64,000 bases of DNA from Candidatus Zhuqueibacterota bacterium (GTDB taxonomy: Bacteria > Zhuqueibacterota > Zhuqueibacteria > Thermofontimicrobiales > Thermofontimicrobiaceae): positions 4,435-68,434 of the forward strand of contig JAPDPQ010000001.1 of assembly GCA_034506395.1 (NCBI GenBank), in the 5' to 3' direction. Numbering within the stretch: position 1 is the first letter of the stretch; each line of letters begins with the position of its first letter. The notes under the pieces were generated by a model. That model searched no databases and was not told the DNA's origin. It saw only the letters and a list, made by a program, of their open reading frames with translations. A program made the position numbers and the translations under genes. Shown one piece after another: positions 761 through 51,588 of the stretch.

Positions 761-793
761 GTTTATTTGGCTGAACATAAAAATTAATCCCCT

Positions 794-829
794 TGTCATA
801 CGAATCCTTCCTGACGAAGTGAGGAGGTC
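794..829. repeat. REP-like short dispersed repeat copy (TGTCAT..CGAA..CGAAG.GAGGA..TC), same family as the copies at 40456-40626
   Basis: tgtcatacgaatccttcctgacgaagtgaggaggtc resembles the reverse complement of 40598-40626 (aaatgtcattgcgaacgaagggaggaatct), with a 10-nt insertion. Confidence 0.4.
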
Positions 830-1072
830 GATGAGCATGTCTCATTTTTTATCTTTATAGTGCAGTGGCTCGCGATTGAAACGTGAAAAAGCCAATGCGC
901 TCAAGATCAATCTATGCTTTGGCAGAGAACTGAGTTATCTATTGCCAGGCCGCAAATTCAAAATTATCGCCGAGAGTCAATTCTTCTCTCTATCTTCAAT
1001 TTAAATCATTGATCGGCTCTGAATCTTTTTTCCACTGGAAACATCAAATTATCAGAATAATGGAGAGATCCA

Positions 1073-1285
1073 ATGGAAAAAGAAATTGAGCCGATCATTC
1101 AAAAATATTGCGGTGCACTTGAGGAACGGATCGCAGCTTGCCACGACAAAAAGGTTGCTCGGCTCTTGAAACAGTTCCTTTTTAATGAGATTCGGCAACA
1201 CTGTAAAAATAAAGCAACCCTGGCTGCTGTGCGCGCGCATATCGATTCGCTCATTCAAAAGCGATTTCAAAGCAAACCAAACTGA
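1073..1285 (+). CDS. Small hypothetical protein (70 aa), Cys/His-containing
   Basis: The ORF has a GGAGAG Shine-Dalgarno shortly upstream of the ATG and is immediately followed by the DUF1858-like gene. No family recognised. Confidence 0.4.
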   Translation: MEKEIEPIIQKYCGALEERIAACHDKKVARLLKQFLFNEIRQHCKNKATLAAVRAHIDSLIQKRFQSKPN

Positions 1286-1510: not shown

Positions 1511-1714
1511 ATCTTGAAAACTGATCATAGATATGAGGGAATCCTCCATCATAAACCAATTGCGAAAATAAAACTATCACTTGAGTAGATAAAGAAGTCA
1601 CCTCTATCTCATTCATAAAAGTGCCAACAGATGCCTGCAGTCGCAGGCGTGACATTCAGAATGTGGGGACTTATTTTTGGTAGAAGTATAAATTTGATTA
1701 AGAAGGACAGCTTT

Positions 1715-2155
1715 ATGAGAGCAAGGATCAAACGAGTTGATGGGTTAAGTTTAATCGGGAAGGCGGATTCGAATCACTGGGTGCCAATGGACACAGTGGA
1801 GGATTTTGGCGGTCATAATGCGGGCACAAAACCGATGGAATTGGTGCTATTGGGGCTTGGCGGTTGTACAGCGATGGATGTGCTATCGATTATGACAAAA
1901 AAACGCGCGCCAATCCAAGATTTTGAAATGGAGCTTGAGGCTGAGCAAGCAGCAGATTATCCAAAAGTATTCACCAAAATCAAAATCACTTACATTTTTT
2001 ACGGGGACAAAGAGAAAATCAAGGGAAAAGATATTGAGCGGGCCATCGAACTCTCACGGGATGTGTATTGCCCCGTCTCCAATATGTTAAAACATTCGGT
2101 AGCCATTGAGCATCACTACGAAATTCGAGAGCCCAAAATTGGTACAGACCAATGA
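1715..2155 (+). CDS. OsmC/Ohr-family peroxiredoxin-like protein
   Basis: KPMELVLLGLGGCTAMDVLSIMTKKR and DVYCPVSNML are the two conserved Cys blocks of the OsmC family. Start placed at ATG 1715, preceded by AAGAAGGA, rather than the track start at 1631. Confidence 0.8.
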   Translation: MRARIKRVDGLSLIGKADSNHWVPMDTVEDFGGHNAGTKPMELVLLGLGGCTAMDVLSIMTKKRAPIQDFEMELEAEQAADYPKVFTKIKITYIFYGDKEKIKGKDIERAIELSRDVYCPVSNMLKHSVAIEHHYEIREPKIGTDQ

Positions 2156-2267
2156 CTGTTCTAATATGCGTCCCAGCAGCTACGGACCAATCATTTTTTC
2201 GAGTGAAACTTAGCTCTCGAGATTGAGCATCAACAAAATATGTCTTGTTTTTTTCATGAAAATTTCT

Positions 2268-2296
2268 ATATTTCCGTTAACAAAAAACGGAAATAT
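2268..2296 (+). promoter_or_regulatory. Perfect 11-bp inverted repeat (ATATTTCCGTT-N7-AACGGAAATAT) overlapping the sigma-factor start codon
   Basis: Read directly: left arm 2268-2278, loop 2279-2285, right arm 2286-2296. The A and T of the ATG at 2295 lie in the right arm. Confidence 0.5.
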
Positions 2297-2870
2297 GGAT
2301 ATGGAATTGACAGAACAAGAATTGATCCGTCGTGCAAAGCAAGGAGATCGGGCAGCTCAGGCTAAAATTGTAAAAGACCATGAGAAAATGGTCTATAATT
2401 TGGGTCTAAAATTATTGGGCAACCCTGACCAAGCAGAGGGCGTTTTGCAAGAGACCTTCCTCAAGGTATTGCAAGCGCTTCCCAAATTCGAGGAAAAATC
2501 TCAGCTCTCGACTTGGATCTATCGCATCGCGACCAATCAGGCGCTCATGCGATTGCGTTCTCGCAAACGTCGTTTTATTTCAATTGAGGAAAATCCAGAA
2601 TTTGAGGATAAAGATTACACGACCTTCGCTCAATCGTTGGATGCAACCCCACTGGATGACGTGCTGAATCAGGAATTGCGAGAAAAGATGGATCGAGCGA
2701 TTGAGCAATTGCCAGATAATTATAAAACAGTGTTCGTGATGAAGGATATCGAAGGGATGGCATTGAAGGAAATTGCAGAAATTTTAGACCTGTCTTTGCC
2801 TGCAGTCAAATCCAATCTGCACCGCGCCAGAGTTACTCTTCGAAATAAATTGGCTGAAATGTGGAACTGA
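2295..2870 (+). CDS. ECF-subfamily sigma-70 RNA polymerase sigma factor
   Basis: Region 2 (VYNLGLKLLGNPDQAEGVLQETFLKV..WIYRIATNQALMRLR) and region 4 (VFVMKDIEGMALKEIAEILDLSLPAVKSNLHRAR) motifs. Start moved to ATG 2295, or possibly 2301. Confidence 0.85.
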   Translation: MDMELTEQELIRRAKQGDRAAQAKIVKDHEKMVYNLGLKLLGNPDQAEGVLQETFLKVLQALPKFEEKSQLSTWIYRIATNQALMRLRSRKRRFISIEENPEFEDKDYTTFAQSLDATPLDDVLNQELREKMDRAIEQLPDNYKTVFVMKDIEGMALKEIAEILDLSLPAVKSNLHRARVTLRNKLAEMWN

Positions 2871-2880
2871 GGAATTTGCG

Positions 2881-3114
2881 ATGGAATGTTTTGAGTCTCT
2901 GGAAAAAATTTGTGAAGCGCTTGGAGAAGATATCGATAGCCCAATGTGCAAAGAGGTTGAGGAGCATTTGCGCAATTGCCCCCGCTGTTGCGCCCACGTC
3001 GATTCGGTCCGCAAGGTCGTTCGGCTTTATCGACAGATTGGCGATGCGGAGGTGCCTGTAGCCGTGGACGAACGATTGTGGAAAGTGCTCAATCTTTCAA
3101 AGCCACAAGACTGA
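2881..3114 (+). CDS. Short soluble zinc-binding anti-sigma factor (ZAS type)
   Basis: Starts 11 nt after the sigma-factor stop. 77 aa with EEHLRNCPRCC (HxxxCxxC ZAS motif). No hydrophobic segment long enough for a TM helix. Confidence 0.65.
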   Translation: MECFESLEKICEALGEDIDSPMCKEVEEHLRNCPRCCAHVDSVRKVVRLYRQIGDAEVPVAVDERLWKVLNLSKPQD

Positions 3115-3368
3115 AGCTTGGCGCAAACCAGCTTCTATCTTTGAGCCCTACTGTTGCGCGCAGCAAATTATTATTATCCCACCGAACCAAACTAAATTCA
3201 TTTTCAAATGCAGTTCAGCCCTCGCTTCCGTTCTTTTGACCCTCCACATTTTGACTCGATCATTCGTCCGCCTTTATGCGCGGAATTACCTTTGGTGACT
3301 TTATATTCATGACTACAATAAGATCGATGCTTGGTGATGAGAAGATGGCAAAAGGCACGATTATTCGC

Positions 3369-3469: not shown

Positions 3470-4876
3470 ATGAGCACCCAGCCGGGAATTAAAATCCGAA
3501 AAATTGCTATCGGCGCCGACCATGCGGGATTTGAGCTCAAGGAGAAGCTCAAAAAATATCTTGCTGATCGAGGGCATCATCTTTTTGATTGTGGAACTTT
3601 CAGCACCGAATCCGTGGATTATCCGAAGATCGCCTTTCAGGTTGCACAATTGGTGAGCAGAGGCGAATATGAATTGGGAATCATGATCGACGGTGCGGGG
3701 ATTGGTTCGGCGATGGCAGCCAATAAGGTCCCCGGTATTCGAGCGGCTCTCTGTTACGATCTTTCGACCGCACGCAATAGTCGCGAGCACAACAACGCCA
3801 ATGTCCTCACTCTGGGGGGTGGGCTGATCGGTTTTGAATTGGCCAAACAGATCGTCGATACCTGGCTGGCATCAGAGTGCACAGTCGATCGACACCTGCG
3901 CCGAGTACAGATGATCCATGACATCGAACAAGGAAAATTCACTGTGAATCAGATAACGATGCCTCCAGGTCCCTCATCTGGGTTGGCAATTTCCGAGGAA
4001 GACGTTAAGAAAATCGTTTCGAGAGTCCAAACTTTATTACAGCAGCAGATGGGAACTGGTGCGATGTGGACATCCGCTAGTTGTCAAAATCCCACATGCA
4101 ATTCGTGCGGCCAATGTGCGAATAAGGCCCCTGATGCCGTTCGTCAATTTATTTCCATTGGTGCTGCGCGCATCTCTAATGCTCCAGGTGGCATCGGTGC
4201 CCCGCAGGACATCGCCAAATTTATTGACCACACGCTGCTCAAGCCAGAAGCTACGATTTCGGATATCGAACGGGTTTGTCAGGAGGCAGTGAAATATCAA
4301 TTTGCAGCGGTGTGTATTAATCCCTGCTATGTGAAATTGGCGCATGAATTGACACGTGGATCCAATGTAAAAGTTTGTAGCGTGGTTGGGTTTCCGCTCG
4401 GGGCAAGCATCACCGAGATTAAAGCCCTGGAGGCTCGGCGAGCGATTCGCGACGGGGCGAAGGAGATCGATATGGTAATCAACATCGGTGCACTCAAAAG
4501 CGACAATGATGAATTGGTGTTTCGGGACATCCGGACTGTGGTGGATGCTTGTGTGGATGGAAGCGCAATCTGCAAGGTTATCATTGAAGCAGCGCTCTTG
4601 ACCGATGAAGAGAAAGTGAGGGCGTGCGAGCTGGCAAAGCGGGCGCGAGCCCATTATGTGAAAACGTCGACGGGATTCGGCCCCGGCGGTGCGACTGCGC
4701 ATGACGTCGCGCTGATGCGACAGGTGGTGAGCGGCACACGAATGGGCGTGAAGGCTGCGGGCGGCATCCGATCGCTGGCAGACGCACAAAAGATGATCGA
4801 AGCGGGGGCCACTCGGATCGGCGCCAGCGCTGGCGTGAAAATCGTCCAAGAAGCAGCAAAGGTGGCAAATCCCTGA
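3470..4876 (+). CDS. Fusion protein: RpiB/LacAB-family sugar-phosphate isomerase (aa 11-155), linker (aa 156-245), deoxyribose-phosphate aldolase DeoC/DERA (aa 246-468)
   Basis: The N-terminal half reads [49 protein letters not shown] (RpiB family). The C-terminal half reads [42 protein letters not shown] (class I DERA with Schiff-base Lys). The linker holds an amphipathic helix ([19 protein letters not shown]) and a C-x4-C-x2-C-x2-C cluster. Confidence 0.9.
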
Positions 4877-5063: not shown

Positions 5064-5693
5064 GTGGTTGACCTACGCGCTTATGTCTTTTTGGACAATC
5101 TTCAGCCGCAATACGCCGCCTTTTTGGGCACGGTGGCACAAGGGTTCCTGCCAATCGCCCACATGGCGTCGCTTTATGTCGAGATCTCCCCAGGGATCGA
5201 AATCAATCGTATCACGGATATCGCTTTGAAATCGACTCGGGTAACGCCGGGGATGCAAATTGTGGAACGCCTTTATGGTTTGCTTGAGATCCATTCTGAG
5301 TCTCAGGCGGACGTTCGGCAGGCTGGTCAGGCGATTTTGGACGCGTTGGGTTTAAAGGAAGAAGATCGCTGGAAGCCGAAGATTTACTCCAGCCAGGTGA
5401 TCCGACGAATTGATGACCATCAGACGCAATTGATTAATCGCATGCGCCACGGCAACATGATCATTCCGGGCCAGACATTGTATGTGATGGAAGTTGCCCC
5501 GGCAGCTTATGCCGCACTGGCAGCGAACGAAGCGGAAAAGGCCGCCGAAATTAATATCCTAGAGGTTCGAGCTTTTGGCAGTTTTGGACGCGTTTATCTG
5601 GGAGGAGAGGAACGCGATATCGACGTGGGGTGGCGCGCGGCTGTTCATGCCATTGAAAGCGTCACTGGCAAAATGTTTGAAGGAGCGTCTTAG
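5064..5693 (+). CDS. BMC shell protein with tandem BMC domains (BMC-T, probably permuted type)
   Basis: 209 aa with two halves, each showing the BMC-domain pattern (..[20 protein letters not shown].. and ..[45 protein letters not shown]). GTG start with AAGGAG 7 nt upstream. Confidence 0.6.
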
Positions 5694-6062: not shown

Positions 6063-6383
6063 ATGGCCGAAGCTTTAGGAATGATTGAATGTCGTAGTTT
6101 TCCAGCAATGGTGGAAGCTGCAGATGCCATGGTTAAGGCTGCCAAGGTTGAGTTGGTCAGTTACGAGAAAACTGGGGGAGGATACGTCACTGCGATCATC
6201 CGTGGGGATGTTGCTGCGGTAAAGGCCGCTTGCGAAGCTGGACAAGCTGGTGCCGCCAAAGTGGGTGAGGTCGTTGCCGTGCATATTATCGCTCGGCCGC
6301 ACAGCAATGTGGACCTGGTATTGCCATTGGGCAGAAAGGAACAGGTAGCCGCAGAGCTGAAGAAAACCAAGCGCGATGAATAA
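6063..6383 (+). CDS. BMC shell protein BMC-H (PduA/EutM-like hexamer)
   Basis: [66 protein letters not shown] is the canonical single BMC domain. Confidence 0.95.
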
Positions 6384-7027: not shown

Positions 7028-7594
7028 TTGGATCGACCTTTTTTAATCGGCAAAAAGATCTATCTCCGACCAGTAGAGCCTGAGGATGCGGCATTTCTCG
7101 CTCGGGGGGAAAATCACCCAGCGGTGCGCGAGGCGTTATTTCTGGCATTCCCCGTGAGTATGGGAACTGAGCTGGAGAAGATCGAGCAATTCATCAAATC
7201 CAAAGAAGCAATTGTGCTGATCATTGTAGACCAGCAGACGAATCAACCAGTCGGCCAGACCGCATTCTTTCGCATCGATTTCGTCAGCCGAGCGGCCGTT
7301 TTTTATCTGGCAATCCTCGATCCGAGCCATTGGTCGAAGGGGTATGGCTCGGAGGCCACACAACTCATGGTTGATTACGCATTCGAGACGCTCAATCTCA
7401 ATCGCATCCAGCTTCATGTCTGCGCCGAAAATACCCCTGCCATTCGGATTTATGAGCGCGCTGGATTCAAAAAAGAGGGAGTTTTACGACAGGCTATGTT
7501 TCGCAACGGGGCTTATGTGGATTTCTGGGTGATGGGCATCTTGCGGAGCGATTGGTCGGTGCGATCTCAAAATAGCCAAGTCTTTTCGGCATAA
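7028..7594 (+). CDS. GNAT-family N-acyltransferase (RimJ/RimL-like) embedded in the BMC locus
   Basis: IYLRPVEPEDAAFL..SKGYGSEATQLMVDYAFETLNLNRIQLHVCAENTPAIRIYERAGFKKEG gives the GNAT motifs A/B. TTG start; there is no in-frame ATG upstream of the conserved core. Confidence 0.75.
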   Translation: MDRPFLIGKKIYLRPVEPEDAAFLARGENHPAVREALFLAFPVSMGTELEKIEQFIKSKEAIVLIIVDQQTNQPVGQTAFFRIDFVSRAAVFYLAILDPSHWSKGYGSEATQLMVDYAFETLNLNRIQLHVCAENTPAIRIYERAGFKKEGVLRQAMFRNGAYVDFWVMGILRSDWSVRSQNSQVFSA

Positions 7595-7741: not shown

Positions 7742-9187
7742 TTGTCTTTCCTTGGTGAAAATCAGATCGAAACGATCGCCCAAAAAATTGTGGAGATCAT
7801 TATTGGCAAGAGCTCAGTGCCGGACGCGGGTATAAGGAGTAGCTCGGTCTTTCGTTCAGGCTGGTTGGGGATTTTCCCCACCATCGATGAAGCCGTGACC
7901 GCGACTTCGATCGCTCAGCGGCAATTGACCAGCATGACGCTCCGAAAGCGAGATGAGATCATCGCCAGTATCCGAGCCATGATGCTGGAACATGCGCGGG
8001 AGTTGGCCGAATTCGCCGTTGCAGAGACAGGGTTGGGCCGCGTCGAAGATAAGATTGCCAAAAATAAATTGGTGAGCGAGAAGACGCCTGGGACAGAAGA
8101 TCTCTATCCGATTGCCCGATCTGGAGACCACGGGCTAAGCTTGTTCGAGCCAGCGCCTTATGGCGTTATTGGCGCCATCACGCCAATTACCAACCCCACT
8201 TCTACGATCATCTGCAACACGATCGGAATGGTTGCAGCGGGCAACGGGGTGGTTTTCAACGTTCATCCTGGGGCAAAAAACACCTCAATCCAAAATATCC
8301 ATTTAATAAACCAGGCTATTATCCAAGCTGGTGGGCCCGTGAATTTGGTCAGTGGCATAACCGAGCCAACAATTGCAACGGCACAGCAATTGATGCGCCA
8401 TCCTGGGATACGAATTTTGGTCATCACAGGCGGAGGTGCTGTGGTCCGAGAAGCGATGAACAGTGGCAAGCGAGCCATTTGCGCTGGGCCCGGCAATCCA
8501 CCTGTGGTAGTTGATGAAACCGCTGATTTGGAGCGCGCTGGCGAGTTCATCGTGAAAGGCGCATCGTTCGACAATAACATCATCTGTGTGGATGAAAAGG
8601 AACTCATCGTGGTTGAGGCAGTGGCAGACCAATTGCTCAGGATCATGCAGAACAAAGGGGCGATCTTGCTAAAACCCCAGCTTCTCCCCCAGCTCGAGCA
8701 ATTATTGTTCGAGAAAACGAACGGGCCGGCCAAGCCAGGGATGATAAATAAAAGCTTGATCGGCAAAAATGCCAATTTGATCCTCTCGAAATTGGGGCTA
8801 TCGGTCGATGATCGGATTCGATTGGCCGTCATCGAGGTCGATCGCACCCATCCGCTGGTCTGGACCGAACAGATGATGCCAATTTTGCCGATGGTGCGGG
8901 TGGCGAATGCGGATGAGGCAATCGATTTGGCAAAACAGGTAGAAGGTGGAAATTATCATACTGCGGTTATGTATTCCCGAAATCTGGACAATCTCAGCCG
9001 GATGGCCCGGGAAATTAACACGACAATTTTTGTGAAAAACGGTCCCGCCTATGCTGGATTAGGATTTGGCGGCGAGGGATACACTTCTTTTTCTATCGCC
9101 AGCCCAACGGGAGAGGGCTTAACAGGTCCGCGCAGTTTCTCAAGAGAGCGGCGTTGCGTGTTGGTAGATCATTTTCGGATCGTTTAA
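7742..9187 (+). CDS. CoA-acylating aldehyde dehydrogenase (EutE/PduP family) with an N-terminal encapsulation-peptide-like helix
   Basis: 481 aa with the ALDH core and catalytic Cys context FDNNIICVDEKELIV. N-terminal ENQIETIAQKIVEIIIGK (7754-7807) is an amphipathic helix followed by a linker. TTG start with GGAG 7 nt upstream; the first internal Met is already inside the conserved core. Confidence 0.9.
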   Translation: MSFLGENQIETIAQKIVEIIIGKSSVPDAGIRSSSVFRSGWLGIFPTIDEAVTATSIAQRQLTSMTLRKRDEIIASIRAMMLEHARELAEFAVAETGLGRVEDKIAKNKLVSEKTPGTEDLYPIARSGDHGLSLFEPAPYGVIGAITPITNPTSTIICNTIGMVAAGNGVVFNVHPGAKNTSIQNIHLINQAIIQAGGPVNLVSGITEPTIATAQQLMRHPGIRILVITGGGAVVREAMNSGKRAICAGPGNPPVVVDETADLERAGEFIVKGASFDNNIICVDEKELIVVEAVADQLLRIMQNKGAILLKPQLLPQLEQLLFEKTNGPAKPGMINKSLIGKNANLILSKLGLSVDDRIRLAVIEVDRTHPLVWTEQMMPILPMVRVANADEAIDLAKQVEGGNYHTAVMYSRNLDNLSRMAREINTTIFVKNGPAYAGLGFGGEGYTSFSIASPTGEGLTGPRSFSRERRCVLVDHFRIV

Positions 9188-9188
9188 T

Positions 9189-9812
9189 ATGAAACTATAC
9201 CCTGCAATTGCGCTGATCGAGTTTAGTAGCATTGCCACCGGAGTAATTGCTGGCGATGCGATGATCAAAAGAGCGCCGATTTCCATGTTAAAGGCTGGCA
9301 CGGTCAGCCGAGGAAAATATCTGGTGATGATTGCTGGTAGCACAGCAGCGGTCGAGGAATCTTATCGGGCTGGTCTAAGCGTCGGCGAAGCTGCGGTCAT
9401 CGATAAGGTTTTTCTGCCTGATGTGCATCCGCAGGTGCTCGACGCTATCCTTGGAGCAAGAAAAAAAATCAGCTCCGAGGCACTCGGGCTGATCGAAACC
9501 GCATCTATTGCCGCGACGATCGCCGCCGCTGATGCTGGCATCAAAGGGGCGATGGTCGATATCATCGAAATTCGGCTGGGCGACGCATTGGGCGGCAAGG
9601 CATTTGTGATGATGAACGGAACAGTCCACGACGTCACCGCTGCAGTTACCATTGGGCTGAAAGCGATCTCCAATGAAGCGCTTTGGCGCAATCATATCAT
9701 CATCCCATCGTTGCATCACGAAATGGCCCGTCAGATCGACCGTTCGAGCCGATTTGCCCTGGTAGAATATCAAAAATTAGCTGGAGACGAGAGCGAACAT
9801 GTTACTGGGTAA
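9189..9812 (+). CDS. BMC shell protein with tandem BMC domains (BMC-T, PduT-like topology, no Cys)
   Basis: Two BMC domains: IALIEFSSIATGVIAGDAMIKRAP..KYLVMIAGSTAAVEES and ALGLIETASIAATIAAADAGIKGA..GGKAFVMMNGTVHDVTAAV. Starts 1 nt after the AldDH stop. Confidence 0.85.
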   Translation: MKLYPAIALIEFSSIATGVIAGDAMIKRAPISMLKAGTVSRGKYLVMIAGSTAAVEESYRAGLSVGEAAVIDKVFLPDVHPQVLDAILGARKKISSEALGLIETASIAATIAAADAGIKGAMVDIIEIRLGDALGGKAFVMMNGTVHDVTAAVTIGLKAISNEALWRNHIIIPSLHHEMARQIDRSSRFALVEYQKLAGDESEHVTG

Positions 9813-10089
9813 AGTGATCGGCACTGTTACGCCCTGCGTGGTTTACCCCGGACTCGAAGGCGTTCCGCTTCTGCTGGTTCAGCCGCTGAGTAAAAACTCC
9901 AAAGCGGTCGGCAAGCCCATTGTCGCCTGCGATGCCACCCGAATGGCTGGTCCAGGAGAACTGATCTATTACGAGGGCGGCCGCGAGGCAGCGCTGGCAT
10001 TAGATCCCTGGTTCGTCCCAGTGGATCACACCATCATTGGCATTGTGGATGGCGTCCATCTAATCGATGAAAGCTCTCAGTCCGAGTGA
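9799..10089 (+). CDS. BMC vertex protein BMC-P (EutN/CcmL family), paralog 2
   Basis: MLLGKVIGTVTPCVVYPGLEGVPLLLVQPL..VACDATRMAGPGELIYYEGGREA. Overlaps the preceding BMC-T gene by 14 nt. Confidence 0.85.
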   Translation: MLLGKVIGTVTPCVVYPGLEGVPLLLVQPLSKNSKAVGKPIVACDATRMAGPGELIYYEGGREAALALDPWFVPVDHTIIGIVDGVHLIDESSQSE

Positions 10090-10319: not shown

Positions 10320-10592
10320 GTGATTATCGGCAAAGTCGCTGGAGAAATCTACTCCACGATCAACCACAGTTTCTATGATCAAAAAAAACTGCTGATCGTG
10401 GACAAATTGGACCTAACTGGAACGCCCACAGGCGACTATTTGATCGCAGTAGATTCCGTCGATGCTGGGCTCGGTGAAACGGTATTGGTCATTGATGAAG
10501 GCAATTCGGCCCGACAGGTAGTAAGCGATCCCAATGCGCCAATCCGCTCAATCATTATCGGGATCATCGATGCCGTGCGCATTGAGAGGTGA
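10320..10592 (+). CDS. BMC vertex protein BMC-P (EutN/CcmL family), paralog 3
   Basis: IIGKVAGEIYSTINHSFYDQKKLLIVDKLD..IAVDSVDAGLGETVLVIDEGNSARQ. GTG start with GGAGA 8 nt upstream. Confidence 0.85.
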   Translation: MIIGKVAGEIYSTINHSFYDQKKLLIVDKLDLTGTPTGDYLIAVDSVDAGLGETVLVIDEGNSARQVVSDPNAPIRSIIIGIIDAVRIER

Positions 10593-10840: not shown

Positions 10841-11527
10841 ATGGCGAATGAATGGCAATTGCGACGGGAGATCGTCGCGATTGGCAAAAAGGCTTACGAA
10901 CGCGGGCTGGTGACGGCCACAGATGGGAATATCAGCGTGCGAGTCATGGGAGATCGTTTTCTGATCACACCGAGCGGCAGTTGCCTCGGAGAATTGGCAC
11001 CCGAACAATTGGTTTATGTCGATTTTGAAGGCAAGACATTATCTGGCGGTAAGCCAACTGGAGAGCTGGCCATGCACCTGGCTGCTTATCGAGAGCGGCC
11101 AGACATCCATGCCGTCTTGCATGCACACCCACCAATTACCACGGGCTTTACCATCGCTGGCGAATCACTGGCGCAATGCGTCATCCCCGAGGTTGTGGTG
11201 ATCTTCGGGACCATCCCTACTACGGAATATGCCACTATTTCAACTGAAGAGGGTGCCAAAGTCATTCGGGAATTGATCCGCGACCATGATGCTTTGATAT
11301 TGGATCGGCATGGGACAATTACAGTGGGAAAAACCCTCATCGACGCATATCGCAAACTCGAGAAGGTCGAATATGCCGCCCAGGTCACCCTGGTTGCCAA
11401 ACAATTGGGCAAAGTGAAAACCTTATCGCGTGAACAAATTCAAAAATTGGAAGCCGTCAGGCAAAAATATGGCTATCAGGGCCGAAAATCGCTATGCGAG
11501 GCATGTGGCCTCTGCAATATTTCATGA
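10841..11527 (+). CDS. Class II (metal-dependent) aldolase/adducin-family protein (FucA/RhaD/DrdA/MtnB-like) with a C-terminal helix and CxxCxxC tail
   Basis: GLVTATDGNISVR..ELAMHLAAYRERPDIHAVLHAHPP..ILDRHGTITVGKTL gives the His metal ligands of class II aldolases. The tail is LSREQIQKLEAVRQKYGYQGRKSLCEACGLCNIS. Confidence 0.85.
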   Translation: MANEWQLRREIVAIGKKAYERGLVTATDGNISVRVMGDRFLITPSGSCLGELAPEQLVYVDFEGKTLSGGKPTGELAMHLAAYRERPDIHAVLHAHPPITTGFTIAGESLAQCVIPEVVVIFGTIPTTEYATISTEEGAKVIRELIRDHDALILDRHGTITVGKTLIDAYRKLEKVEYAAQVTLVAKQLGKVKTLSREQIQKLEAVRQKYGYQGRKSLCEACGLCNIS

Positions 11528-11694: not shown

Positions 11695-12588
11695 ATGAAG
11701 GAGAACAAATTTTTGACTGCAAATCAGCAAGAACCGATCCAATCCACATACGACTGTATCCCCTGTGCTATCGGGAGCCTGATCACTCTATTTAAAAAAG
11801 GACTGGTTTCAGAAAGGGATCAGGAAATCGCCATGCGAGCATTATTGCGTTATCTCAGCACCATTGATTTCCATCAATCCCCTCCCCAAATCGGTCAACA
11901 GATGCAACGGATCATTCGACACGTGCTCAATAATCCTGATCCGTATTTAGAAATCAAACAGCAATTCAATCGCTTGCTTCTCGATCATTACGTTGAATTA
12001 AAAGCATGGGTGGACCAGGCGGCAGATCCATTTCAGATGGCATTGCGATTGTCCATCGCTGGAAACGTGATCGATTTCGGTCCGAATCAACGCTTTGATG
12101 TCCACCAAACATTGGAACGGGCAAAGACTATTGTCCTGGCGATCGATGATTCAGAGCCTTTGCGCCAGGCCATCTCGAAAGCAACGCTACTTCTCTATTT
12201 GGGAGATAATGCTGGCGAAATCGTGTTGGATCGTATTTTCCTGGAAACGATTAACCATCCCAATGTCTATTTTGCTGTTCGCAGTGCGCCCATCATCAAT
12301 GACGCATTGCTGGAAGACGCAATCATGGTAGGAATCGACAAAATTGCCCATGTCATCACCAATGGGGATGATGCGCCTGGGACAATCTTAGAGAACACCT
12401 CAGCCCAATTTAAGACAATTTTTGACCAAGCGGATCTGATCATTTCAAAAGGCCAGGGCAATTATGAGGGTCTTAGCTGCGTTGATAAAAATATCTTCTT
12501 TTTGCTAATGACCAAATGCGAGCATGTCGCTAATCATCTTGGAGTAAAAAAAGGTGATTTTGTGGTGAAACAAGGACAAGGTTGTTGA
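11695..12588 (+). CDS. DUF89 (ARMT1-like) metal-dependent phosphatase family protein
   Basis: YLGDNAGEIVLDRIFLE and IISKGQGNYEGLS match the DUF89 signature blocks as I remember them. N-terminal CIPCAIGS. Confidence 0.7.
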   Translation: MKENKFLTANQQEPIQSTYDCIPCAIGSLITLFKKGLVSERDQEIAMRALLRYLSTIDFHQSPPQIGQQMQRIIRHVLNNPDPYLEIKQQFNRLLLDHYVELKAWVDQAADPFQMALRLSIAGNVIDFGPNQRFDVHQTLERAKTIVLAIDDSEPLRQAISKATLLLYLGDNAGEIVLDRIFLETINHPNVYFAVRSAPIINDALLEDAIMVGIDKIAHVITNGDDAPGTILENTSAQFKTIFDQADLIISKGQGNYEGLSCVDKNIFFLLMTKCEHVANHLGVKKGDFVVKQGQGC

Positions 12589-36933: not shown

Positions 36934-38229
36934 TTAGTGAATGGAGCCCAATATCAATCTTGGGACCTGACATGGTGCTTCATCAATTTCAATTGCCGAT
37001 CGTAAAGCGTGTTCAATTTGCTCAGCATTCATCACTTTTGAGTGATAGATTTCAGCCAAAGGCTCACCGCGTTCCACGCGATCACCGACTTTATGGCACA
37101 AAACGATCCCCGCGGTGGGATCAATGGGATCTCCAATTTTTGCCCGACCAGCGCCGAGTTCCATGGACAACAAGCCGATCTTCAGCGCATTTATCTCGTG
37201 AACATAACCTGATTTGGTGCTGAGCACGGTTTCATGATATTGGCTGAAGGGATATCGAGCAGGATTTTCAACGACTGAAATATCACCTCCCTGGGCAGTT
37301 ACCATCTCAATAAATTTATTATAGGCAGCTCCATTGGCTAATAAAAATTGCAATTGATCAGAATGATGAATTGGCTTTCCCGCCAATCGCAGCATCTCTG
37401 CCGTGAGCGCCAAAGTAATTTCAACTAAGTCATTTGGGCCACCACCATGCAATGTATCAATTGCTTCTTTAACCTCCAGCCAATTCCCAACCGCATAACC
37501 TAAAGGCTGATCCATGGCCGTCATCATGGCCGTAGTGGGCAGGCCGAAGCTTTTTGCAATCGAGATGAATGTCTCGGCTAATTGGTTCGCTCGGTCAAAT
37601 GAGCTAAAAAATGCTCCACGACCAGTTTTAACATCCAACACCAGGGCCTTTGCACCTTCTGCGATCTTTTTGCTCAATATGCTGGCAACAACTAAAGGGA
37701 TCGATGGCACAGTTCCTGTGCGATCGCGTAACGCATAAATCTTTTTGTCCGCCGGGACAATCTCATCGGTTTGCCCAATCATGGCAAGGCCGATTTTTTC
37801 AACTTGTTGAACGAACTCTGTCAAGCTCAACTGGGTTCGAAAGCCGGGGATCGATTCTAATTTGTCCAATGTCCCACCAGAATGGCCCAATCCACGACCA
37901 GACATCATGGGAACTGCTACCCCTGCCGCGGCGGCCAATGGGGCCAAGACCAATGACACCTTATCACCGACCCCTCCAGTGCTGTGCTTATCGACAGGCA
38001 TCCGATCTAAATGGCTGAAGTCTACCGTCCGGCCCGATTGAACCATGAGCTTGGTCAATGCTTGAGTCTCTTCTATGCTCATGCCCTGAAAATAAATGGC
38101 CATCAATAAAGCGGCCATTTGGTAGTCTGGGACCAAACCAGCGACATAGCCATCGATTATTGATTTCAACTCTGCCTCTGAAAGGTGAGATCCGTCTCGC
38201 TTTTTCACAATCAATTGTTCAATATTCAT
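36934..38229 (-). CDS. deoA: Thymidine / pyrimidine-nucleoside phosphorylase
   Basis: IVKKRDGSHLSEAELKSII..DKHSTGGVGDKVSL..SGRGLGHSGGTLDKLE. Start at ATG 38229, preceded by GGAAGAGGA. Confidence 0.9.
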   Translation of the reverse strand: MNIEQLIVKKRDGSHLSEAELKSIIDGYVAGLVPDYQMAALLMAIYFQGMSIEETQALTKLMVQSGRTVDFSHLDRMPVDKHSTGGVGDKVSLVLAPLAAAAGVAVPMMSGRGLGHSGGTLDKLESIPGFRTQLSLTEFVQQVEKIGLAMIGQTDEIVPADKKIYALRDRTGTVPSIPLVVASILSKKIAEGAKALVLDVKTGRGAFFSSFDRANQLAETFISIAKSFGLPTTAMMTAMDQPLGYAVGNWLEVKEAIDTLHGGGPNDLVEITLALTAEMLRLAGKPIHHSDQLQFLLANGAAYNKFIEMVTAQGGDISVVENPARYPFSQYHETVLSTKSGYVHEINALKIGLLSMELGAGRAKIGDPIDPTAGIVLCHKVGDRVERGEPLAEIYHSKVMNAEQIEHALRSAIEIDEAPCQVPRLILGSIH

Positions 38230-38319
38230 CGTTCCTCTTCCTTTTTCCAAAAAACAAAGAAGCAATCAAACAACGATTGCTTCTTTAATTTTGTTTTCAT
38301 TCTATAGCTCTATTTCGTG

Positions 38320-39681
38320 TCAACTAAGAGCGCTCAATTGCTTAATCTCCTCAACAAATTGATAAGCCAGTGCATTGGCTTGGTCCATGGTTTTCGCCTC
38401 AGCGTAGATTCGGATAATTGGCTCTGTATTGGACGGTCGAATTTGCACCCAGCGATCGGGCCATAGGATCTTCAAACCGTCCGTCAGATCGAGACGCTGG
38501 TTATTGTATTTATTGGTCATCGTCTTCAATAACTCGCCAATATTCACATCGGCCAATTCAATGCGACTCTTAGCGATCACATATTGCGGCAAAGATCGTT
38601 GCAATTCGCCAATAGAGCCCCCAAATTCAGCCAATTGCTGCAAAGTTAAGGCAATTCCCACTGGTGCATCTCGGCCTAAATGAAGCTCCGGCAAGATAAC
38701 TCCTCCGTTTCCTTCCCCACCGATCACCGCCTTCACTTCCTTCATCTTTTTTGCGACATGAATTTCCCCAACTTTGGTTCGAAACACCTCAGCGCCATAT
38801 TTGGCAGCAATTTCGTCGATCGCCTGGGTGACCGAGACATTGACCGCCACTGGCCCGTGTCTTTTTTGAAGCACATAATTCACAGCTAACGCCAAAGTAT
38901 ACTCCTCGCCCAGGGGATTGCCGTGCTCATCGACAATGGCGAGCCGATCGACATCCGGATCCACTGCAAAGCCCAGATCGGCACCAGTGCGCTTCACTGT
39001 CTGGCATAATTCTTTGAGATTCTCTGGCAATGGTTCTGGTGGATGCGAAAATAACCCAGTTGGATCCTCATTGATAAATATCACATCGCATCCCAGGCGT
39101 TGCAATAATTGGGGTAAAATGGTCCCACCTGCTCCATTCACACAATCTACGACAACCCTAAATTTCCGGGCAGCTATCTTCTCTGGTGAAATCAAATCTA
39201 ATCGCAAAATGGCATCGATATGATGCCGAATAGCGGTGTTATTAAGTTCGATCTTTCCAATTTGATCCCAAGGGACAAAGCGAAATTCTGCTTCGTCGGC
39301 AAGCTGAATGACTTTCTTGCCTTGTATCTCATCGAGGAACATGCCAGAGGCATCGATCAATTTCAACGCGTTCCATTCGATTGGATTATGGCTGGCTGTG
39401 ATGGCAATGCCTCCACGCGCCTTAAAATGCTCCACCGCCAATTCTACCGTTGGCGTTGGGCAAATGCCGATATCAATTACATCGCATCCCATGGCCGTCA
39501 GGCCAGAGAGCACCGCATGCTTGACCATGGGTCCAGTGATTCGGGAGTCTCTTCCTACCACCACCTTTCCTCCACCCAAATAAGCCCCGAATGCCTGGGC
39601 GTATCGGAGGACCACCTCTGGGGTTAACCCATCTCCAACCACGCCTCTTATTCCCGAGATGCTAACCATTAATTTCGCCAC
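38320..39681 (-). CDS. Phosphohexomutase-superfamily mutase (PMM/PGM/GlmM-like; possibly acting as a phosphopentomutase)
   Basis: VSISGIRGVVG..GGIAITASHNP (phosphoserine loop)..FAVDPDVDR (Mg site)..GGEGNGG. Substrate specificity cannot be read from the sequence by eye. Confidence 0.8.
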   Translation of the reverse strand: MAKLMVSISGIRGVVGDGLTPEVVLRYAQAFGAYLGGGKVVVGRDSRITGPMVKHAVLSGLTAMGCDVIDIGICPTPTVELAVEHFKARGGIAITASHNPIEWNALKLIDASGMFLDEIQGKKVIQLADEAEFRFVPWDQIGKIELNNTAIRHHIDAILRLDLISPEKIAARKFRVVVDCVNGAGGTILPQLLQRLGCDVIFINEDPTGLFSHPPEPLPENLKELCQTVKRTGADLGFAVDPDVDRLAIVDEHGNPLGEEYTLALAVNYVLQKRHGPVAVNVSVTQAIDEIAAKYGAEVFRTKVGEIHVAKKMKEVKAVIGGEGNGGVILPELHLGRDAPVGIALTLQQLAEFGGSIGELQRSLPQYVIAKSRIELADVNIGELLKTMTNKYNNQRLDLTDGLKILWPDRWVQIRPSNTEPIIRIYAEAKTMDQANALAYQFVEEIKQLSALS

Positions 39682-39720: not shown

Positions 39721-40296
39721 TTAGAACCGATTATAATGAACAATATCGCTTAATCTTCTTTTAGGGACATGCAGAACACCTTGATCGTCCTTCCAATATT
39801 TAATTGAATCTTTCACTTCTTCCACTACTGGCGACTCATCGGGATAGCCCAATGCCACTACCGAGTCGATTTGATAATGCTGGGGGATGTCAAAAACCGA
39901 TCTCAATTGATTCCGATCGATCGATCCCAGCCAGCAAGATCCTACATTTTCTTCCAGGGCTGTCAGGATCATGTTTTCGATAGCCGCGGCTGCGTCCACG
40001 CTGCCGTTCCCCGATTTGATCTGAGTATTGACCAACACCACAATATACGCCACTGGACGTTTTCCTTCAGGGGGATTCCCCGCAGGAGCAATATAACCTG
40101 CCCATTTCAAAGCAGGAAATACCTTGTTCACCATCTCCGGATCATCGACAATAATGAATTCCAATGGCTGCAGATTTGCCCCCGATGGCGCTAATCGTCC
40201 TGCGTTGACTAATTTTTCCAATAGCTCCAAAGAAAGCGGTTCTTGTTTAAACCGGCGAATCGTTCGACGCTTCAGAATTATCTCATAAACGCTCAC
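39721..40296 (-). CDS. Nitroreductase-family flavoprotein
   Basis: ILKRRTIRRFKQEP..AGRLAPSGANLQPLEFIIV. Confidence 0.8.
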   Translation of the reverse strand: MSVYEIILKRRTIRRFKQEPLSLELLEKLVNAGRLAPSGANLQPLEFIIVDDPEMVNKVFPALKWAGYIAPAGNPPEGKRPVAYIVVLVNTQIKSGNGSVDAAAAIENMILTALEENVGSCWLGSIDRNQLRSVFDIPQHYQIDSVVALGYPDESPVVEEVKDSIKYWKDDQGVLHVPKRRLSDIVHYNRF

Positions 40297-49224: not shown

Positions 49225-51588
49225 GTGACGCCGAGAGTTGAGAAATTAAGAAGACAAAGCCTGGAGACTCCGACATCGATTACAGCAGAGCGAGCGGTTT
49301 TAATCACCGAATTCTATCGATCGCATGATGCATTGACTATCTCAGCGCCGATGCGCCGGGCATTGGCGTTCAAATATCTGATGGAACATAAAGCCGTTTG
49401 CATCAACGATGGTGAGTTGATCGTTGGCGAGCGCGGACCGGCTCCTCGGTCAACCCCAACATTCCCAGAGATCTGCTGCCATACGATTGAGGAGCTTGAG
49501 ATCCTCAATTCGAGGGAAAAAGTGAGCTACGCGGTCTCTGAAGAAACCAAGCGGATTTATCGCGAGCAAATTATTCCCTATTGGAAGGGAAAGACTATTC
49601 GGGAAAAGATCTTTGAGGAGATGACCGATGAGTGGAAAGCGGCCTATCGCGCTGGGATTTTTACCGAGTTCATGGAGCAACGCGCTCCTGGTCATACAGC
49701 ATTAGATGACAAAATTTACTTGAAAGGCTTTTTGGGATTTAAGAAAGAGATCGAAGAGCAACTGAGTCGATTGGATTATCTAAACGATCCGGAAGCGTAC
49801 GAGAAGCAGGAACAGCTCAAAGCCATGGCCATTGCTGCGGATGCCATCATTCGCTATGCCGAACGACATGCCGAACTCGCCCAACAAATGGCCCGCAAAG
49901 AATCTGATCCAGTCAGGAAACGCGAACTTGAGCAAATTGCAGAAATCTGCGCCTATGTCCCAGCCAATCCGCCACGAACCTTCTGGGAGGCGCTGCAGGC
50001 GTACTGGTTCACCCATGTTGGGGTGATTTCGGAATTAAACACCTGGGACGCCATCTGCCCTGGCCGATTCGATCAGCATTTTTATCCGTTTTACAAAAAG
50101 GACATTGAGTCTGGTCTATTGTCTCGAGAGGCCGCTAAGGAGCTTCTGCAATGCTTCTGGATCAAATTCAACAATCAGCCCGCCCCTCCAAAGGTGGGCG
50201 TCACTGCTCAGGAGAGCGGGACTTATAACGATTTTGCGCTGATTTCGCTGGCCGGACAAACGCGCGATGGAAAAGACGGTGCCAACGAGCTCTCCTATTT
50301 ATGCCTCGATGTATTGGAGGAATTGCGGCTGGTGCAGCCCCACTGTTGCGTTCAATTGAGCCAGCAAAATCCCGATCGCCTGCTGAAGCGTGCGCTCGAG
50401 GTCAATCGCACTGGTCTGGGTCAACCCTCGATCTTCAATCATGACGCCGTGGTCCAGGAGCTTATTCGCCAGGGCAAATCTATCGAAGACGCGAGGACCG
50501 GCGGCACCAGTGGGTGTGTGGAGACCGGGGCATTGGGCAAGGAAAATTACAATCTCACCGGCTACTTTAATATGATGAAAGTGCTGGAAATCACGCTCCA
50601 CAATGGCGTCGATCCCCGTACTGGAGAAAAGATCGGGATCGAAACCGGGGATCCCACTCGATTTGAAAATTTTGAGCAATTATTCGAGGCTTATAAAAGA
50701 CAGCTTCGGCACTTCATCGACATTAAGATCCGAGGCAATAACATCATCGAAAAAATCTATGCGCAATATATGCCCACGCCGTTTCTTTCATTGTTGATTA
50801 GCGATTGCATTCAACGTGGTAAAGATTATCACAATGGCGGAGCGCGCTACAATACAAGCTACATCCAGGGCGTTGGTTTGGGCAGCATTACGGACGCCAT
50901 GAGCTCATTGAAATATCATGTTTACGATCATCGCAAGCTCACCATGGAGCAGATGCTCAGCGTCCTTAAAGATAATTATGAGGGCCATGAAAGGATTCGG
51001 CAGATGATGCGCTATCAGACACCCAAGTACGGCAATGACGATGATTATGCCGATGAGATTATGAAGCGGGTATTTGAAGCCTACTTTGAAGCGATCGATG
51101 GCAGGAAAAATATGAAAGGAGGAACTTATCGCATCAACTTGCTCCCGACGACGGTTCATGTCTACTTTGGCTCAGTGGTGGGAGCAACTCCCGATGGTCG
51201 AAAGGCAGGAGACGTACTCTCTGAAGGGGTGTCTCCAGTTCAGGGGGCGGATCGAAACGGTCCAACAGCAGTGATTAAATCGGTAGCCAAAATCGATCAT
51301 TTACGCACGGGCGGCACTTTGCTGAATCAGAAATTTTCACCTTCGCTACTGAGCAGCGATAACGGACTCGCTGGACTCGCCCATTTGGTACGATCTTATT
51401 TTAAAATGAACGGACATCACATCCAATTTAATGTGGTGACCGCTGCTACGCTCCGAGCGGCTCAGCAGCACCCAGAGAAGTATCGCGACCTGATCGTTCG
51501 GGTGGCAGGATATAGCGATTATTTCTGCAACTTGAATAAAGGCCTGCAGGATGAGATCATCGCCAGGACCGAACATCAAAGCTTTTAG
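49225..51588 (+). CDS. Glycyl radical enzyme of the dehydratase/eliminase (GCVE) clade; substrate unknown
   Basis: 787 aa. Glycyl radical motif LIVRVAGYSDYF (Gly762, codon 51508-51510). Thiyl loop GTSGCVETG (Cys431-x-Glu433, 50515-50523). N-terminal PFL-like fold motifs (INDGELIVGERG, FTEFMEQRAPGH). GTG start. Confidence 0.9.
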   Translation: MTPRVEKLRRQSLETPTSITAERAVLITEFYRSHDALTISAPMRRALAFKYLMEHKAVCINDGELIVGERGPAPRSTPTFPEICCHTIEELEILNSREKVSYAVSEETKRIYREQIIPYWKGKTIREKIFEEMTDEWKAAYRAGIFTEFMEQRAPGHTALDDKIYLKGFLGFKKEIEEQLSRLDYLNDPEAYEKQEQLKAMAIAADAIIRYAERHAELAQQMARKESDPVRKRELEQIAEICAYVPANPPRTFWEALQAYWFTHVGVISELNTWDAICPGRFDQHFYPFYKKDIESGLLSREAAKELLQCFWIKFNNQPAPPKVGVTAQESGTYNDFALISLAGQTRDGKDGANELSYLCLDVLEELRLVQPHCCVQLSQQNPDRLLKRALEVNRTGLGQPSIFNHDAVVQELIRQGKSIEDARTGGTSGCVETGALGKENYNLTGYFNMMKVLEITLHNGVDPRTGEKIGIETGDPTRFENFEQLFEAYKRQLRHFIDIKIRGNNIIEKIYAQYMPTPFLSLLISDCIQRGKDYHNGGARYNTSYIQGVGLGSITDAMSSLKYHVYDHRKLTMEQMLSVLKDNYEGHERIRQMMRYQTPKYGNDDDYADEIMKRVFEAYFEAIDGRKNMKGGTYRINLLPTTVHVYFGSVVGATPDGRKAGDVLSEGVSPVQGADRNGPTAVIKSVAKIDHLRTGGTLLNQKFSPSLLSSDNGLAGLAHLVRSYFKMNGHHIQFNVVTAATLRAAQQHPEKYRDLIVRVAGYSDYFCNLNKGLQDEIIARTEHQSF

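Follow-up and report, generated by a model that had tools for sequence, protein, structure and literature searches.

Genes of the locus

We analysed a 64,000-nucleotide stretch of contig JAPDPQ010000001.1 from a Candidatus Zhuqueibacterota bacterium, a metagenome-assembled genome of candidate division KSB1 (the stretch is hereafter the window), with a focus on two minus-strand genes encoding a sugar-phosphate mutase and a nucleoside phosphorylase (Table 1). Nearly all open reading frames (ORFs) of the window of at least 150 aa were annotated with Pfam. A first-pass annotation had proposed that the two genes form an operon, that the mutase is a phosphopentomutase rather than a phosphoglucosamine mutase (GlmM) or a phosphomannomutase, and that the pair supplies deoxyribose 5-phosphate (dR5P) to a bacterial microcompartment (BMC) encoded in the same window. 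Both ORFs, their common orientation and the gap between them were confirmed, and the operon could not be upheld, as described below.

The mutase contains the four PGM_PMM domains PF02878, PF02879, PF02880 and PF00408, each above its gathering score, and thus belongs to the α-D-phosphohexomutase (PHM) superfamily. Its four active-site loops, TASHNP (with the catalytic Ser97), DPDVDR (metal), GGEGNGG (sugar) and RPSNTEP (phosphate), agree with the superfamily patterns (T/S)-(A/G)-S-H-N-P, D-x-D-x-D-R, G-E-x-(N/S)-G and R-x-S-x-T-x-P, and all four align with their counterparts in 1WQA, 9DU5, 2F7L and the PMM/PGM of Pseudomonas aeruginosa.

The phosphorylase (TP) is a thymidine/pyrimidine-nucleoside phosphorylase of the DeoA/Pdp family with the Pfam domains PF02885 (Glycos_trans_3N), PF00591 (Glycos_transf_3) and PF07831 (PYNP_C). 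It scored 548 bits with TIGR02644 (pyrimidine-nucleoside phosphorylase; cut-off 409) and 533 bits with NF004490 (thymidine phosphorylase; cut-off 269), and fell below the cut-offs of both TIGR02643 and NF004747; by these models it may be either thymidine-specific or of broad pyrimidine specificity. Its predicted products are (deoxy)ribose 1-phosphate and the free base. A purine-rich ribosome-binding site, GGAAGAGG, precedes the ATG of TP in the gap. Translation from an upstream TTG at 38265 is improbable, as this codon falls within a hairpin and homologues align from the ATG.

This hairpin (38287–38255; 14 bp, −20.5 kcal/mol, z = −2.5) is followed by TTTTTT on the coding strand and looks like an intrinsic terminator. 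Because of it, a mutase–TP operon is not established. Similar hairpins lie 3′ of the mutase in three related loci (L001, L014 and L020), and mutase and TP abut, 1 nt apart, in two others (L003 and L012). An Rfam search for a riboswitch in the gap gave only a sub-threshold generic hairpin match, and promoter matches were no more numerous than in shuffled sequence.

Table 1. Features of the window that are discussed in the text
Feature	Position	Strand	Details	Basis
Phosphohexomutase-superfamily mutase	38320–39681	minus	453 aa, GTG start	Pfam, NCBIfam, active-site motifs
Thymidine/pyrimidine-nucleoside phosphorylase (TP)	36934–38229	minus	431 aa from ATG	Pfam, NCBIfam
Intergenic gap	38230–38319	minus	90 nt; terminator-like hairpin, ribosome-binding site	
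Nitroreductase-family gene	39721–40296	minus	39 nt upstream of mutase	
RpiB-DeoC (RPI-DERA) fusion	3470–4876	plus	SPU3 signature enzyme; presumed dR5P consumer	
BMC-domain proteins	5064–5693, 6063–6383, 9189–9812	plus		
GNAT	7028–7594	plus	within BMC locus	
Aldehyde dehydrogenase (AldDH)	7742–9187	plus	BMC locus	
Two EutN/BMC-P genes	9799–10089, 10320–10592	plus	BMC locus	
Class II aldolase	10841–11527	plus	BMC locus	
ARMT1/DUF89 phosphatase	11695–12588	plus	BMC locus end	

Relationship of the mutase to characterized enzymes

In phmmer searches against solved structures, the mutase scored 340 bits with 1WQA (PH0923) and 328 bits with 9DU5 (TK1108), both of which are phosphoglucomutase/phosphomannomutase (PGM/PMM) enzymes, 245 bits with 2F7L (ST0242), 200 bits with 9IX8 (TK1777, the Thermococcus pentomutase) and 123–152 bits with several solved bacterial GlmMs. 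It scored 558 bits with the equivalog model TIGR03990 (‘Arch_GlmM’; cut-off 439 bits) and 232.7 bits with the bacterial GlmM model TIGR01455, below the cut-off of 447.55 bits. TIGR03990 also scored PH0923 (599 bits), TK1108 (588 bits), ST0242 (545 bits) and the pentomutase TK1777 (488 bits) above its cut-off, so the model is not function-specific and cannot separate GlmM from a pentomutase. Since a proven pentomutase passes the cut-off, the name ‘phosphoglucosamine mutase’ that PGAP gives to an identical protein on record carries no weight, and it should be a warning for annotation that TIGR03990 labels the proven pentomutase, two PGM/PMM enzymes and the window mutase all as ‘phosphoglucosamine mutase’. 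A literature search for an aminosugar mutase activity of ST0242 found none. TK1108 has a low pentose-phosphate activity (PMC11641776). Together with the TIGR03990 scores across PGM/PMM enzymes and the pentomutase, this marks the family as catalytically plastic.

The structural study of TK1777 attributed its pentose specificity to a change in motif III from GEEN to AAEP (PMC11641776). Motif III of the window mutase is GEGN, without AAEP; in the alignment, ‘viggegnggvilpel’ stands opposite ‘ifaaep-wklvhpkf’ of 9IX8, and the GEGN loop is invariant across 23 aligned sequences of the FCB group. With GEGN in place of AAEP, the mutase is not a TK1777-type enzyme. A neighbour-joining tree on BLOSUM distances, built without support values, gave the same picture: the FCB mutases formed one clade whose sister is the archaeal set taken together, and the window mutase did not group with TK1777. 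The branching inside the clade follows the phyla, which indicates a vertically inherited single-copy gene. By sequence comparison, the mutase belongs to an FCB-group clade of the archaeal-type ‘COG1109/TIGR03990’ family. The first-pass annotation had pointed to the Thermococcus pentomutase in particular and had called for phylogenetic placement; the enzyme now has a place, in a clade of its own, and the particular kinship is not supported by the tree, the bit scores and motif III.

Conserved coupling to nucleoside and deoxyribose catabolism genes

A scan for mutase homologues, with one genome per GTDB species, gave 80 loci of 47–73% identity from KSB1, Calditrichota, Ignavibacteria/Chlorobi/‘Bacteroidota’, Zixibacteria and Gemmatimonadota, each locus comprising the mutase match and at most 10 kb on either side. 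In KSB1, Zhuqueibacterota and Calditrichota, 19 genomes have a co-oriented TP downstream of the mutase, with varying flanking genes; one of the 19 is a complete 5.2-Mb genome in which the other flanks are unrelated. Because the adjacency is kept in 19 related genomes while the flanks change, it is more than chance. Among the loci of the KSB1/Zhuqueibacterota/Calditrichota clade with enough downstream sequence, four lacked both TP and DeoC.

In several of these genomes the gene for deoxyribose-phosphate aldolase (DERA, DeoC) joins the pair. The order is mutase–DeoC–TP in L002 and L023, mutase–EutN–DeoC–TP in L004, L010, L038 and L049, and mutase–DeoC in L008. If the PHM enzyme is counted as the mutase, then L002, L004, L010, L023, L038 and L049 each hold a deo-type set of phosphorylase, DERA and mutase; in the window only mutase and TP are adjacent, and DERA lies 32 kb off as a BMC fusion. 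The DeoCs of L004, L008, L010 and L038 (277–292 aa) carry an amphipathic N-terminal extension, for example MAAITSQDIEHIISQVIAEK, which looks like a BMC encapsulation peptide.

Three Calditrichia loci that share upstream anchor genes show the coupling in different forms. L013 has the mutase alone; L023 has the mutase followed by a plain DeoC, a class II aldolase and TP; and L026 has the mutase, a SorC/DeoR-type regulator, RpiB-DeoC, shell genes, AldDH, EutN, a class II aldolase and TP. Thus the mutase and TP of L026 bracket a complete sugar-phosphate utilisation (SPU) locus of subtype SPU3, which is sited exactly where the plain DeoC lies in L023. Judged from gene order, these arrangements support a functional tie that joins the mutase both to the breakdown of nucleosides and deoxyribose and to the SPU microcompartment.

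Outside this clade the context is different. In 21 Gemmatimonadota loci a GlmS gene (GATase plus two SIS domains, 608 aa) lies directly downstream of the mutase orthologue on the same strand, and in one Zixibacteria locus GlmS is near it. In Ignavibacteria and Chlorobi the mutase is followed by an orphan EutN/BMC-P gene and DprA.

Two side observations concern these loci. A 96-aa EutN/CcmL (BMC-P) gene lies directly 3′ of the mutase in L029, L036, L037 and L042, as well as in L004, L010, L038 and L049; in Ignavibacteria, Chlorobi and ‘Bacteroidota’ the orphan EutN is followed by housekeeping genes (DprA, DUF3109, RpoN and HslVU), and the 10 kb on either side hold no further shell gene. The place of this pentamer gene beside the mutase is thus kept in several phyla. 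In addition, the Chlorobiaceae metagenome-assembled genome (MAG) of L036 encodes a 339-aa DeoC-family ORF with a long N-terminal extension (137–1156, minus strand), which lies 9 kb from the mutase on its upstream side. Apart from KSB1 and Calditrichota, no other locus showed a DERA in the vicinity of the mutase.

Lack of DeoB in the sampled loci and a probable housekeeping role

The absence of a classical deoB from the window, as stated in the first-pass annotation, was borne out: no DeoB-type domain was present among the Pfam-annotated ORFs, and tblastn with the DeoB proteins of E. coli and B. cereus gave no match at E ≤ 1e-3. A validated DeoB query likewise detected no DeoB-like gene at this threshold in 2.03 Mb of sequence, made up of the window and a set of related loci that each reach at most 10 kb beyond the mutase on either side. 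The window also contains no second phosphohexomutase, no glmS and no glmU.

Gene content across 44 KSB1 MAGs was read from a published KEGG Orthology (KO) table (PMC9012183, supplementary file 7). The table is uninformative on deoB, since K01839 is not one of its rows. However, pdp never occurred without deoC: deoC was present in 22/22 MAGs with pdp compared with 9/22 of the others (Fisher p = 1.9e-5). This co-occurrence argues that a complete route from thymidine to acetaldehyde is under joint selection, and such a route needs a pentomutase.

The same table pointed to a housekeeping function. Canonical glmM (K03431) was found in 0/44 MAGs and glmS (K00820) in 41/44, while K15778 (pmm-pgm), the KO given to this mutase family, was found in 34/44, with more than one copy in one MAG only; pgm (K01835) and manB (K01840) were each found in 2/44. 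In addition, glmU (K04042) was found in 0/44, and most MAGs have K00972, a UAP1-type pyrophosphorylase. With glmM and glmU lacking and K00972 mostly present, the route to UDP-GlcNAc in KSB1 may be non-canonical and archaeal- or eukaryote-like, and the amino-sugar substrate of the mutase may be either glucosamine phosphate or N-acetylglucosamine phosphate. Just past TP the window encodes PBP1A and an LpxH-like phosphoesterase, which suggests that peptidoglycan and, probably, lipopolysaccharide (LPS) are made in these bacteria. They would therefore need a hexosamine-phosphate mutase, for which the window mutase is the only candidate seen. In the KSB1 loci no glmS adjoins the mutase. From this comparison the mutase is probably a housekeeping hexosamine-phosphate mutase.

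We compared glmS-linked orthologues (Gemmatimonadota) with deo-linked ones (KSB1/Calditrichota). The active-site loops of the two groups are alike. Only five positions consistently separate them, one of which lies within a loop (N418 versus G), and this difference is independent of the gene context, N being found in the glmS-linked sequence of Zixibacteria as well. The comparison gave no sign of specificity-shifting residues or of neofunctionalisation.

These results bear on the idea that the KSB1/Calditrichota enzyme is a dedicated, TK1777-like phosphopentomutase with GlmM activity coming from another protein, which is how the first-pass annotation had read it. The deo-like and BMC-linked context would suit such an enzyme, as would a phosphate loop, IRPS, like that of TK1777, and TIGR03990 cannot tell GlmM from a pentomutase. 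We nevertheless judge this idea improbable: the mutase has no AAEP motif and does not group with TK1777, no clade-specific change separates its active-site loops from those of glmS-linked orthologues, and no other gene is in sight for the GlmM step, given the lack of a second PHM gene in the window, the absence of K03431 and the single MAG with more than one copy of K15778. The nucleoside- and BMC-linked part of the earlier proposal is supported, and its exclusion of GlmM or PMM is not, in view of the GEGN loop, the PGM/PMM scores and the glmS-linked orthologues. The first-pass annotation had itself made its pentomutase reading depend on the mutase not being the only glmM; with K03431 in none of the 44 MAGs, the exclusive form fails on that ground and a dual function survives.

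Another view is that the enzyme acts mainly as a PGM/PMM in glycogen or hexose metabolism, like PH0923 and TK1108, and that its neighbours are irrelevant. The best matches among solved structures are indeed PGM/PMM enzymes, and the KSB1 MAGs carry the KEGG-style annotation pmm-pgm with K01835 nearly absent. As a main role we regard this as quite improbable, since it explains neither the glmS linkage nor the deo/BMC linkage, and PGM/PMM activity is compatible with a generalist enzyme rather than opposed to it.

The microcompartment locus of the window

The RPI-DERA fusion is the marker of SPU3 microcompartments (PMC11585597). In the window it lies together with AldDH, BMC-H, BMC-T and BMC-P genes, by which the segment 3470–12588 is an SPU3-type locus, and it is the sole DERA seen in the window. 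The first-pass annotation had placed the fusion about 24 kb from the pair; it is ~32 kb from TP, and 24 kb separates TP from position 12588, where the BMC locus ends. What connects the pair to this BMC is the logic of the pathway and the evidence of other genomes, rather than proximity in the window.

Metagenome contigs carrying the RpiB-DeoC fusion were scanned for nearby partners. They comprised 35 SPU3 loci with a length of 8 kb or more, in none of which TP or this mutase lay within 10 kb. A general physical link of SPU3 loci with the mutase–TP pair was thus rejected.

Comparison with relatives indicated how the present order of the window may have arisen. In the window, the BMC locus is preceded by a block encoding OsmC, an extracytoplasmic function (ECF) sigma factor and a small putative anti-sigma factor (1631–3239); in the relatives L002, L003, L012 and L164 this block comes before nitroreductase–mutase–TP. 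One inversion of ~37 kb (~3.4–40.4 kb) explains the synteny of the window with these four loci, and it places the BMC locus and the mutase–TP pair at its opposite ends. The closer relatives L161 and L162 (84–87% identity) already have the window's order on the mutase side. An ancestral adjacency of the BMC locus and mutase–TP in KSB1 was considered and is unsupported, as the single inversion explains the synteny and L161 and L162 share the order of the window.

As a side observation, a GNAT acetyltransferase gene accompanies DERA in both settings. It lies inside the BMC locus of the window, and in KSB1/Zhuqueibacterota relatives it is directly 3′ of a stand-alone DeoC with no shell genes nearby (L003, 16538–17065; L012, 13489–14016; L164, 7895–8437). 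The GNAT of the window shares 56–58% identity with those of L003 and L012.

A mutase that may serve two pathways

From the gene identities, the conserved linkage, the active-site motifs and the lack of a DeoB gene nearby, we infer a pentose-phosphate activity of the mutase, a dual role and a flux into the compartment. Our prediction from comparative genomics, which we hold at about even chances, is that the KSB1 mutase is a promiscuous enzyme serving as both GlmM and phosphopentomutase. Its housekeeping job would be the GlmM-type conversion of hexosamine 6-phosphate into the 1-phosphate, from which precursors of peptidoglycan and LPS are built. A second, catabolic job in KSB1 and Calditrichota would be that of DeoB. 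TP would cleave thymidine, deoxyuridine or uridine with phosphate to give (deoxy)ribose 1-phosphate, and the mutase would shift the phosphate to C5 by the phospho-Ser97/Mg2+ mechanism with a bisphosphate intermediate. The resulting dR5P would pass to DERA, seen here only as the RpiB-DERA fusion encoded in the SPU3 locus, and would be split into glyceraldehyde 3-phosphate and acetaldehyde; an encapsulated aldehyde dehydrogenase would then oxidise the acetaldehyde to acetyl-CoA. On this model the mutase was recruited as a deo-type pentomutase in KSB1 and Calditrichota, and the DERA step moved into an SPU microcompartment in many genomes.

A fuller version can be put forward only tentatively, and we would rate it somewhat short of an even prospect. 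The FCB mutase, which carries the name ‘phosphoglucosamine mutase’ in all annotations, would be the sole GlmM of the cell and a non-orthologous replacement of DeoB, and with TP it would form a hitherto unrecognized cytosolic feeder arm of the SPU pathway. The Calditrichia loci would then record steps in the encapsulation of a deo cluster, from a plain mutase–DeoC–aldolase–TP order, through mutase–EutN–DERA(EP)–TP, where EP is an encapsulation peptide, to mutase–[whole BMC locus]–TP.

Several observations weigh against the dual-function model. In the window, as in several relatives, a terminator-like hairpin stands between the two genes of the pair; by score the mutase is nearer to PGM/PMM enzymes than to TK1777; and its sugar loop is hexomutase-like (GEGN), without the AAEP tied to pentose specificity. 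Moreover, the BMC of the window is 24–32 kb from the pair with ~25 unrelated housekeeping genes between them, 0/35 of the sampled SPU3 loci have TP or the mutase nearby, and no TP or DeoC adjoins the orthologues in Gemmatimonadota, Ignavibacteria and Chlorobi. The hairpin would however fit a constitutive housekeeping gene followed by a catabolic gene that is expressed separately, by read-through or conditionally. As to the proposal that the pair feeds the BMC, deo- and BMC-linked relatives such as L026 lend it support, and proximity in the window does not.

The hairpin, the hexomutase-type sugar loop and the SPU3 loci without a nearby mutase would also suit a purely housekeeping enzyme, that is a GlmM, possibly with PGM/PMM activity, whose adjacency to TP, DeoC and BMC genes reflects inherited synteny or insertion beside a stable anchor, with deoxyribose 1-phosphate (dR1P) converted by an enzyme encoded elsewhere. 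The glmM–glmS arrangement of the Gemmatimonadota orthologues, which have the same active-site loops, the absence of canonical glmM from the 44 KSB1 MAGs, and the PBP1A and LpxH-like phosphoesterase genes just past TP point the same way. Yet we consider a solely housekeeping role unlikely. The linkage outlasts repeated rearrangement: the mutase is followed by TP alone, by DeoC–TP, by EutN–DeoC–TP or by a whole BMC locus placed exactly between it and TP, and the genes further out vary over three or more phyla; these clusters hold no DeoB, though classical deo operons usually have one; and the strict pdp–deoC co-occurrence in KSB1 means that a pentomutase must exist.

Comparison with known systems

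The closest relatives with a solved structure are PH0923 (1WQA) and TK1108 (9DU5), whose loop architecture is almost identical, with a sugar loop that reads GGEENGG in place of GGEGNGG. The low pentose-phosphate activity reported for TK1108 shows that the scaffold tolerates pentoses. The two archaeal enzymes differ from the window mutase in the metal loop (DGDADR versus DPDVDR) and in the second glutamate of the sugar loop, which is glycine in all aligned FCB sequences; the lineage of the window mutase is bacterial, and the genes around it and its orthologues are glmS or deo/BMC genes, not those of starch metabolism. TK1777 (9IX8) shares with the window mutase the superfamily and four-domain layout, the TASHNP loop, an Asp-rich metal loop, the R-x-S-x-TEP loop and a TIGR03990 score above the cut-off (488 versus 558 bits), and in both hosts the mutase goes together with a deoxyribose route that relies on DERA. 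However, TK1777 has three paralogues and lacks hexomutase activity; in KSB1 the mutase is usually the only PHM gene. The bacterial GlmMs (TIGR01455; structures from B. subtilis, B. anthracis and S. aureus) resemble it in probable role, as suggested by the glmM–glmS-like arrangement of Gemmatimonadota, but the window mutase lies in another clade of the superfamily.

In the deo pathway, a nucleoside is converted via dR1P and dR5P into glyceraldehyde 3-phosphate and acetaldehyde. The relatives' sets of DERA, phosphorylase and mutase match the content of classical deo operons (deoCABD of E. coli; dra-nupC-pdp of B. subtilis with DeoR), and the SorC-family regulator of L026 is of the B. subtilis DeoR type. 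The difference is that the mutase slot is taken by a PHM-superfamily enzyme instead of DeoB, a member of the alkaline-phosphatase superfamily. Human PGM2 is likewise a PHM-superfamily pentomutase. In the window itself, DeoC lies outside the cluster and is present only as the BMC fusion, and the hairpin parts mutase and TP.

Few BMC types are as widespread as the SPU microcompartments, with >280 loci in 26 phyla (PMC8217296), and consumption of dR5P derived from DNA or nucleosides is the published working model (PMC8217296, PMC11585597, PMC12747264). A text search of two of these papers (PMC8217296 and PMC11585597) found no mention of a phosphorylase or mutase, dR5P being described there as ‘from DNA degradation’. 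A 2025 preprint on SPU-type compartments of Asgard archaea (PMC12747264) reconstructed genome-wide a route from nucleotidase through nucleoside phosphorylase and ‘phosphodeoxyribomutase’ to dR5P. We found no literature linking a phosphopentomutase with a BMC locus. The window locus, with its RPI-DERA fusion, AldDH, BMC-H/T/P genes and class II aldolase, is like other SPU3 loci; L026 and the EutN–DERA satellites would add a cytosolic feeder arm, which is absent from 35/35 other sampled SPU3 loci.

PHM-superfamily pentomutases, the deo pathway and the concept of a nucleoside phosphorylase and deoxyribomutase feeding SPU compartments (Asgard; PMC12747264) are thus already known. What appears to be new is the identity of the candidate mutase, from a distinct FCB bacterial clade that also resembles the GlmM of the cell, and the conserved linkage of its gene to those of DERA and TP, including loci where the linkage takes in BMC parts. 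If mutase and TP do form a feeder, the entry route becomes testable, as conversion of a nucleoside via dR1P into dR5P in the cytosol followed by passage into the shell. A bacterial phosphohexomutase-family enzyme would then stand in for DeoB, which would matter when the metabolism of KSB1, Calditrichota and related sediment bacteria is reconstructed, since the pentomutase step would otherwise count as missing there.

Neighbouring genes

The nitroreductase-family gene upstream of the mutase has counterparts in the same place in L001, L002, L161, L162 and L163, in one of these genomes with all other flanks different. It may share a transcription unit with the mutase, with no evident functional link. 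On the plus strand, ~10 kb from the mutase–TP pair, a gene at 49225–51588 encodes a glycyl-radical enzyme (PFL-like plus Gly_radical, 787 aa). It is conserved in L161 and L162, and in the window it lies near genes for a URO-D-like protein and a membrane transporter.

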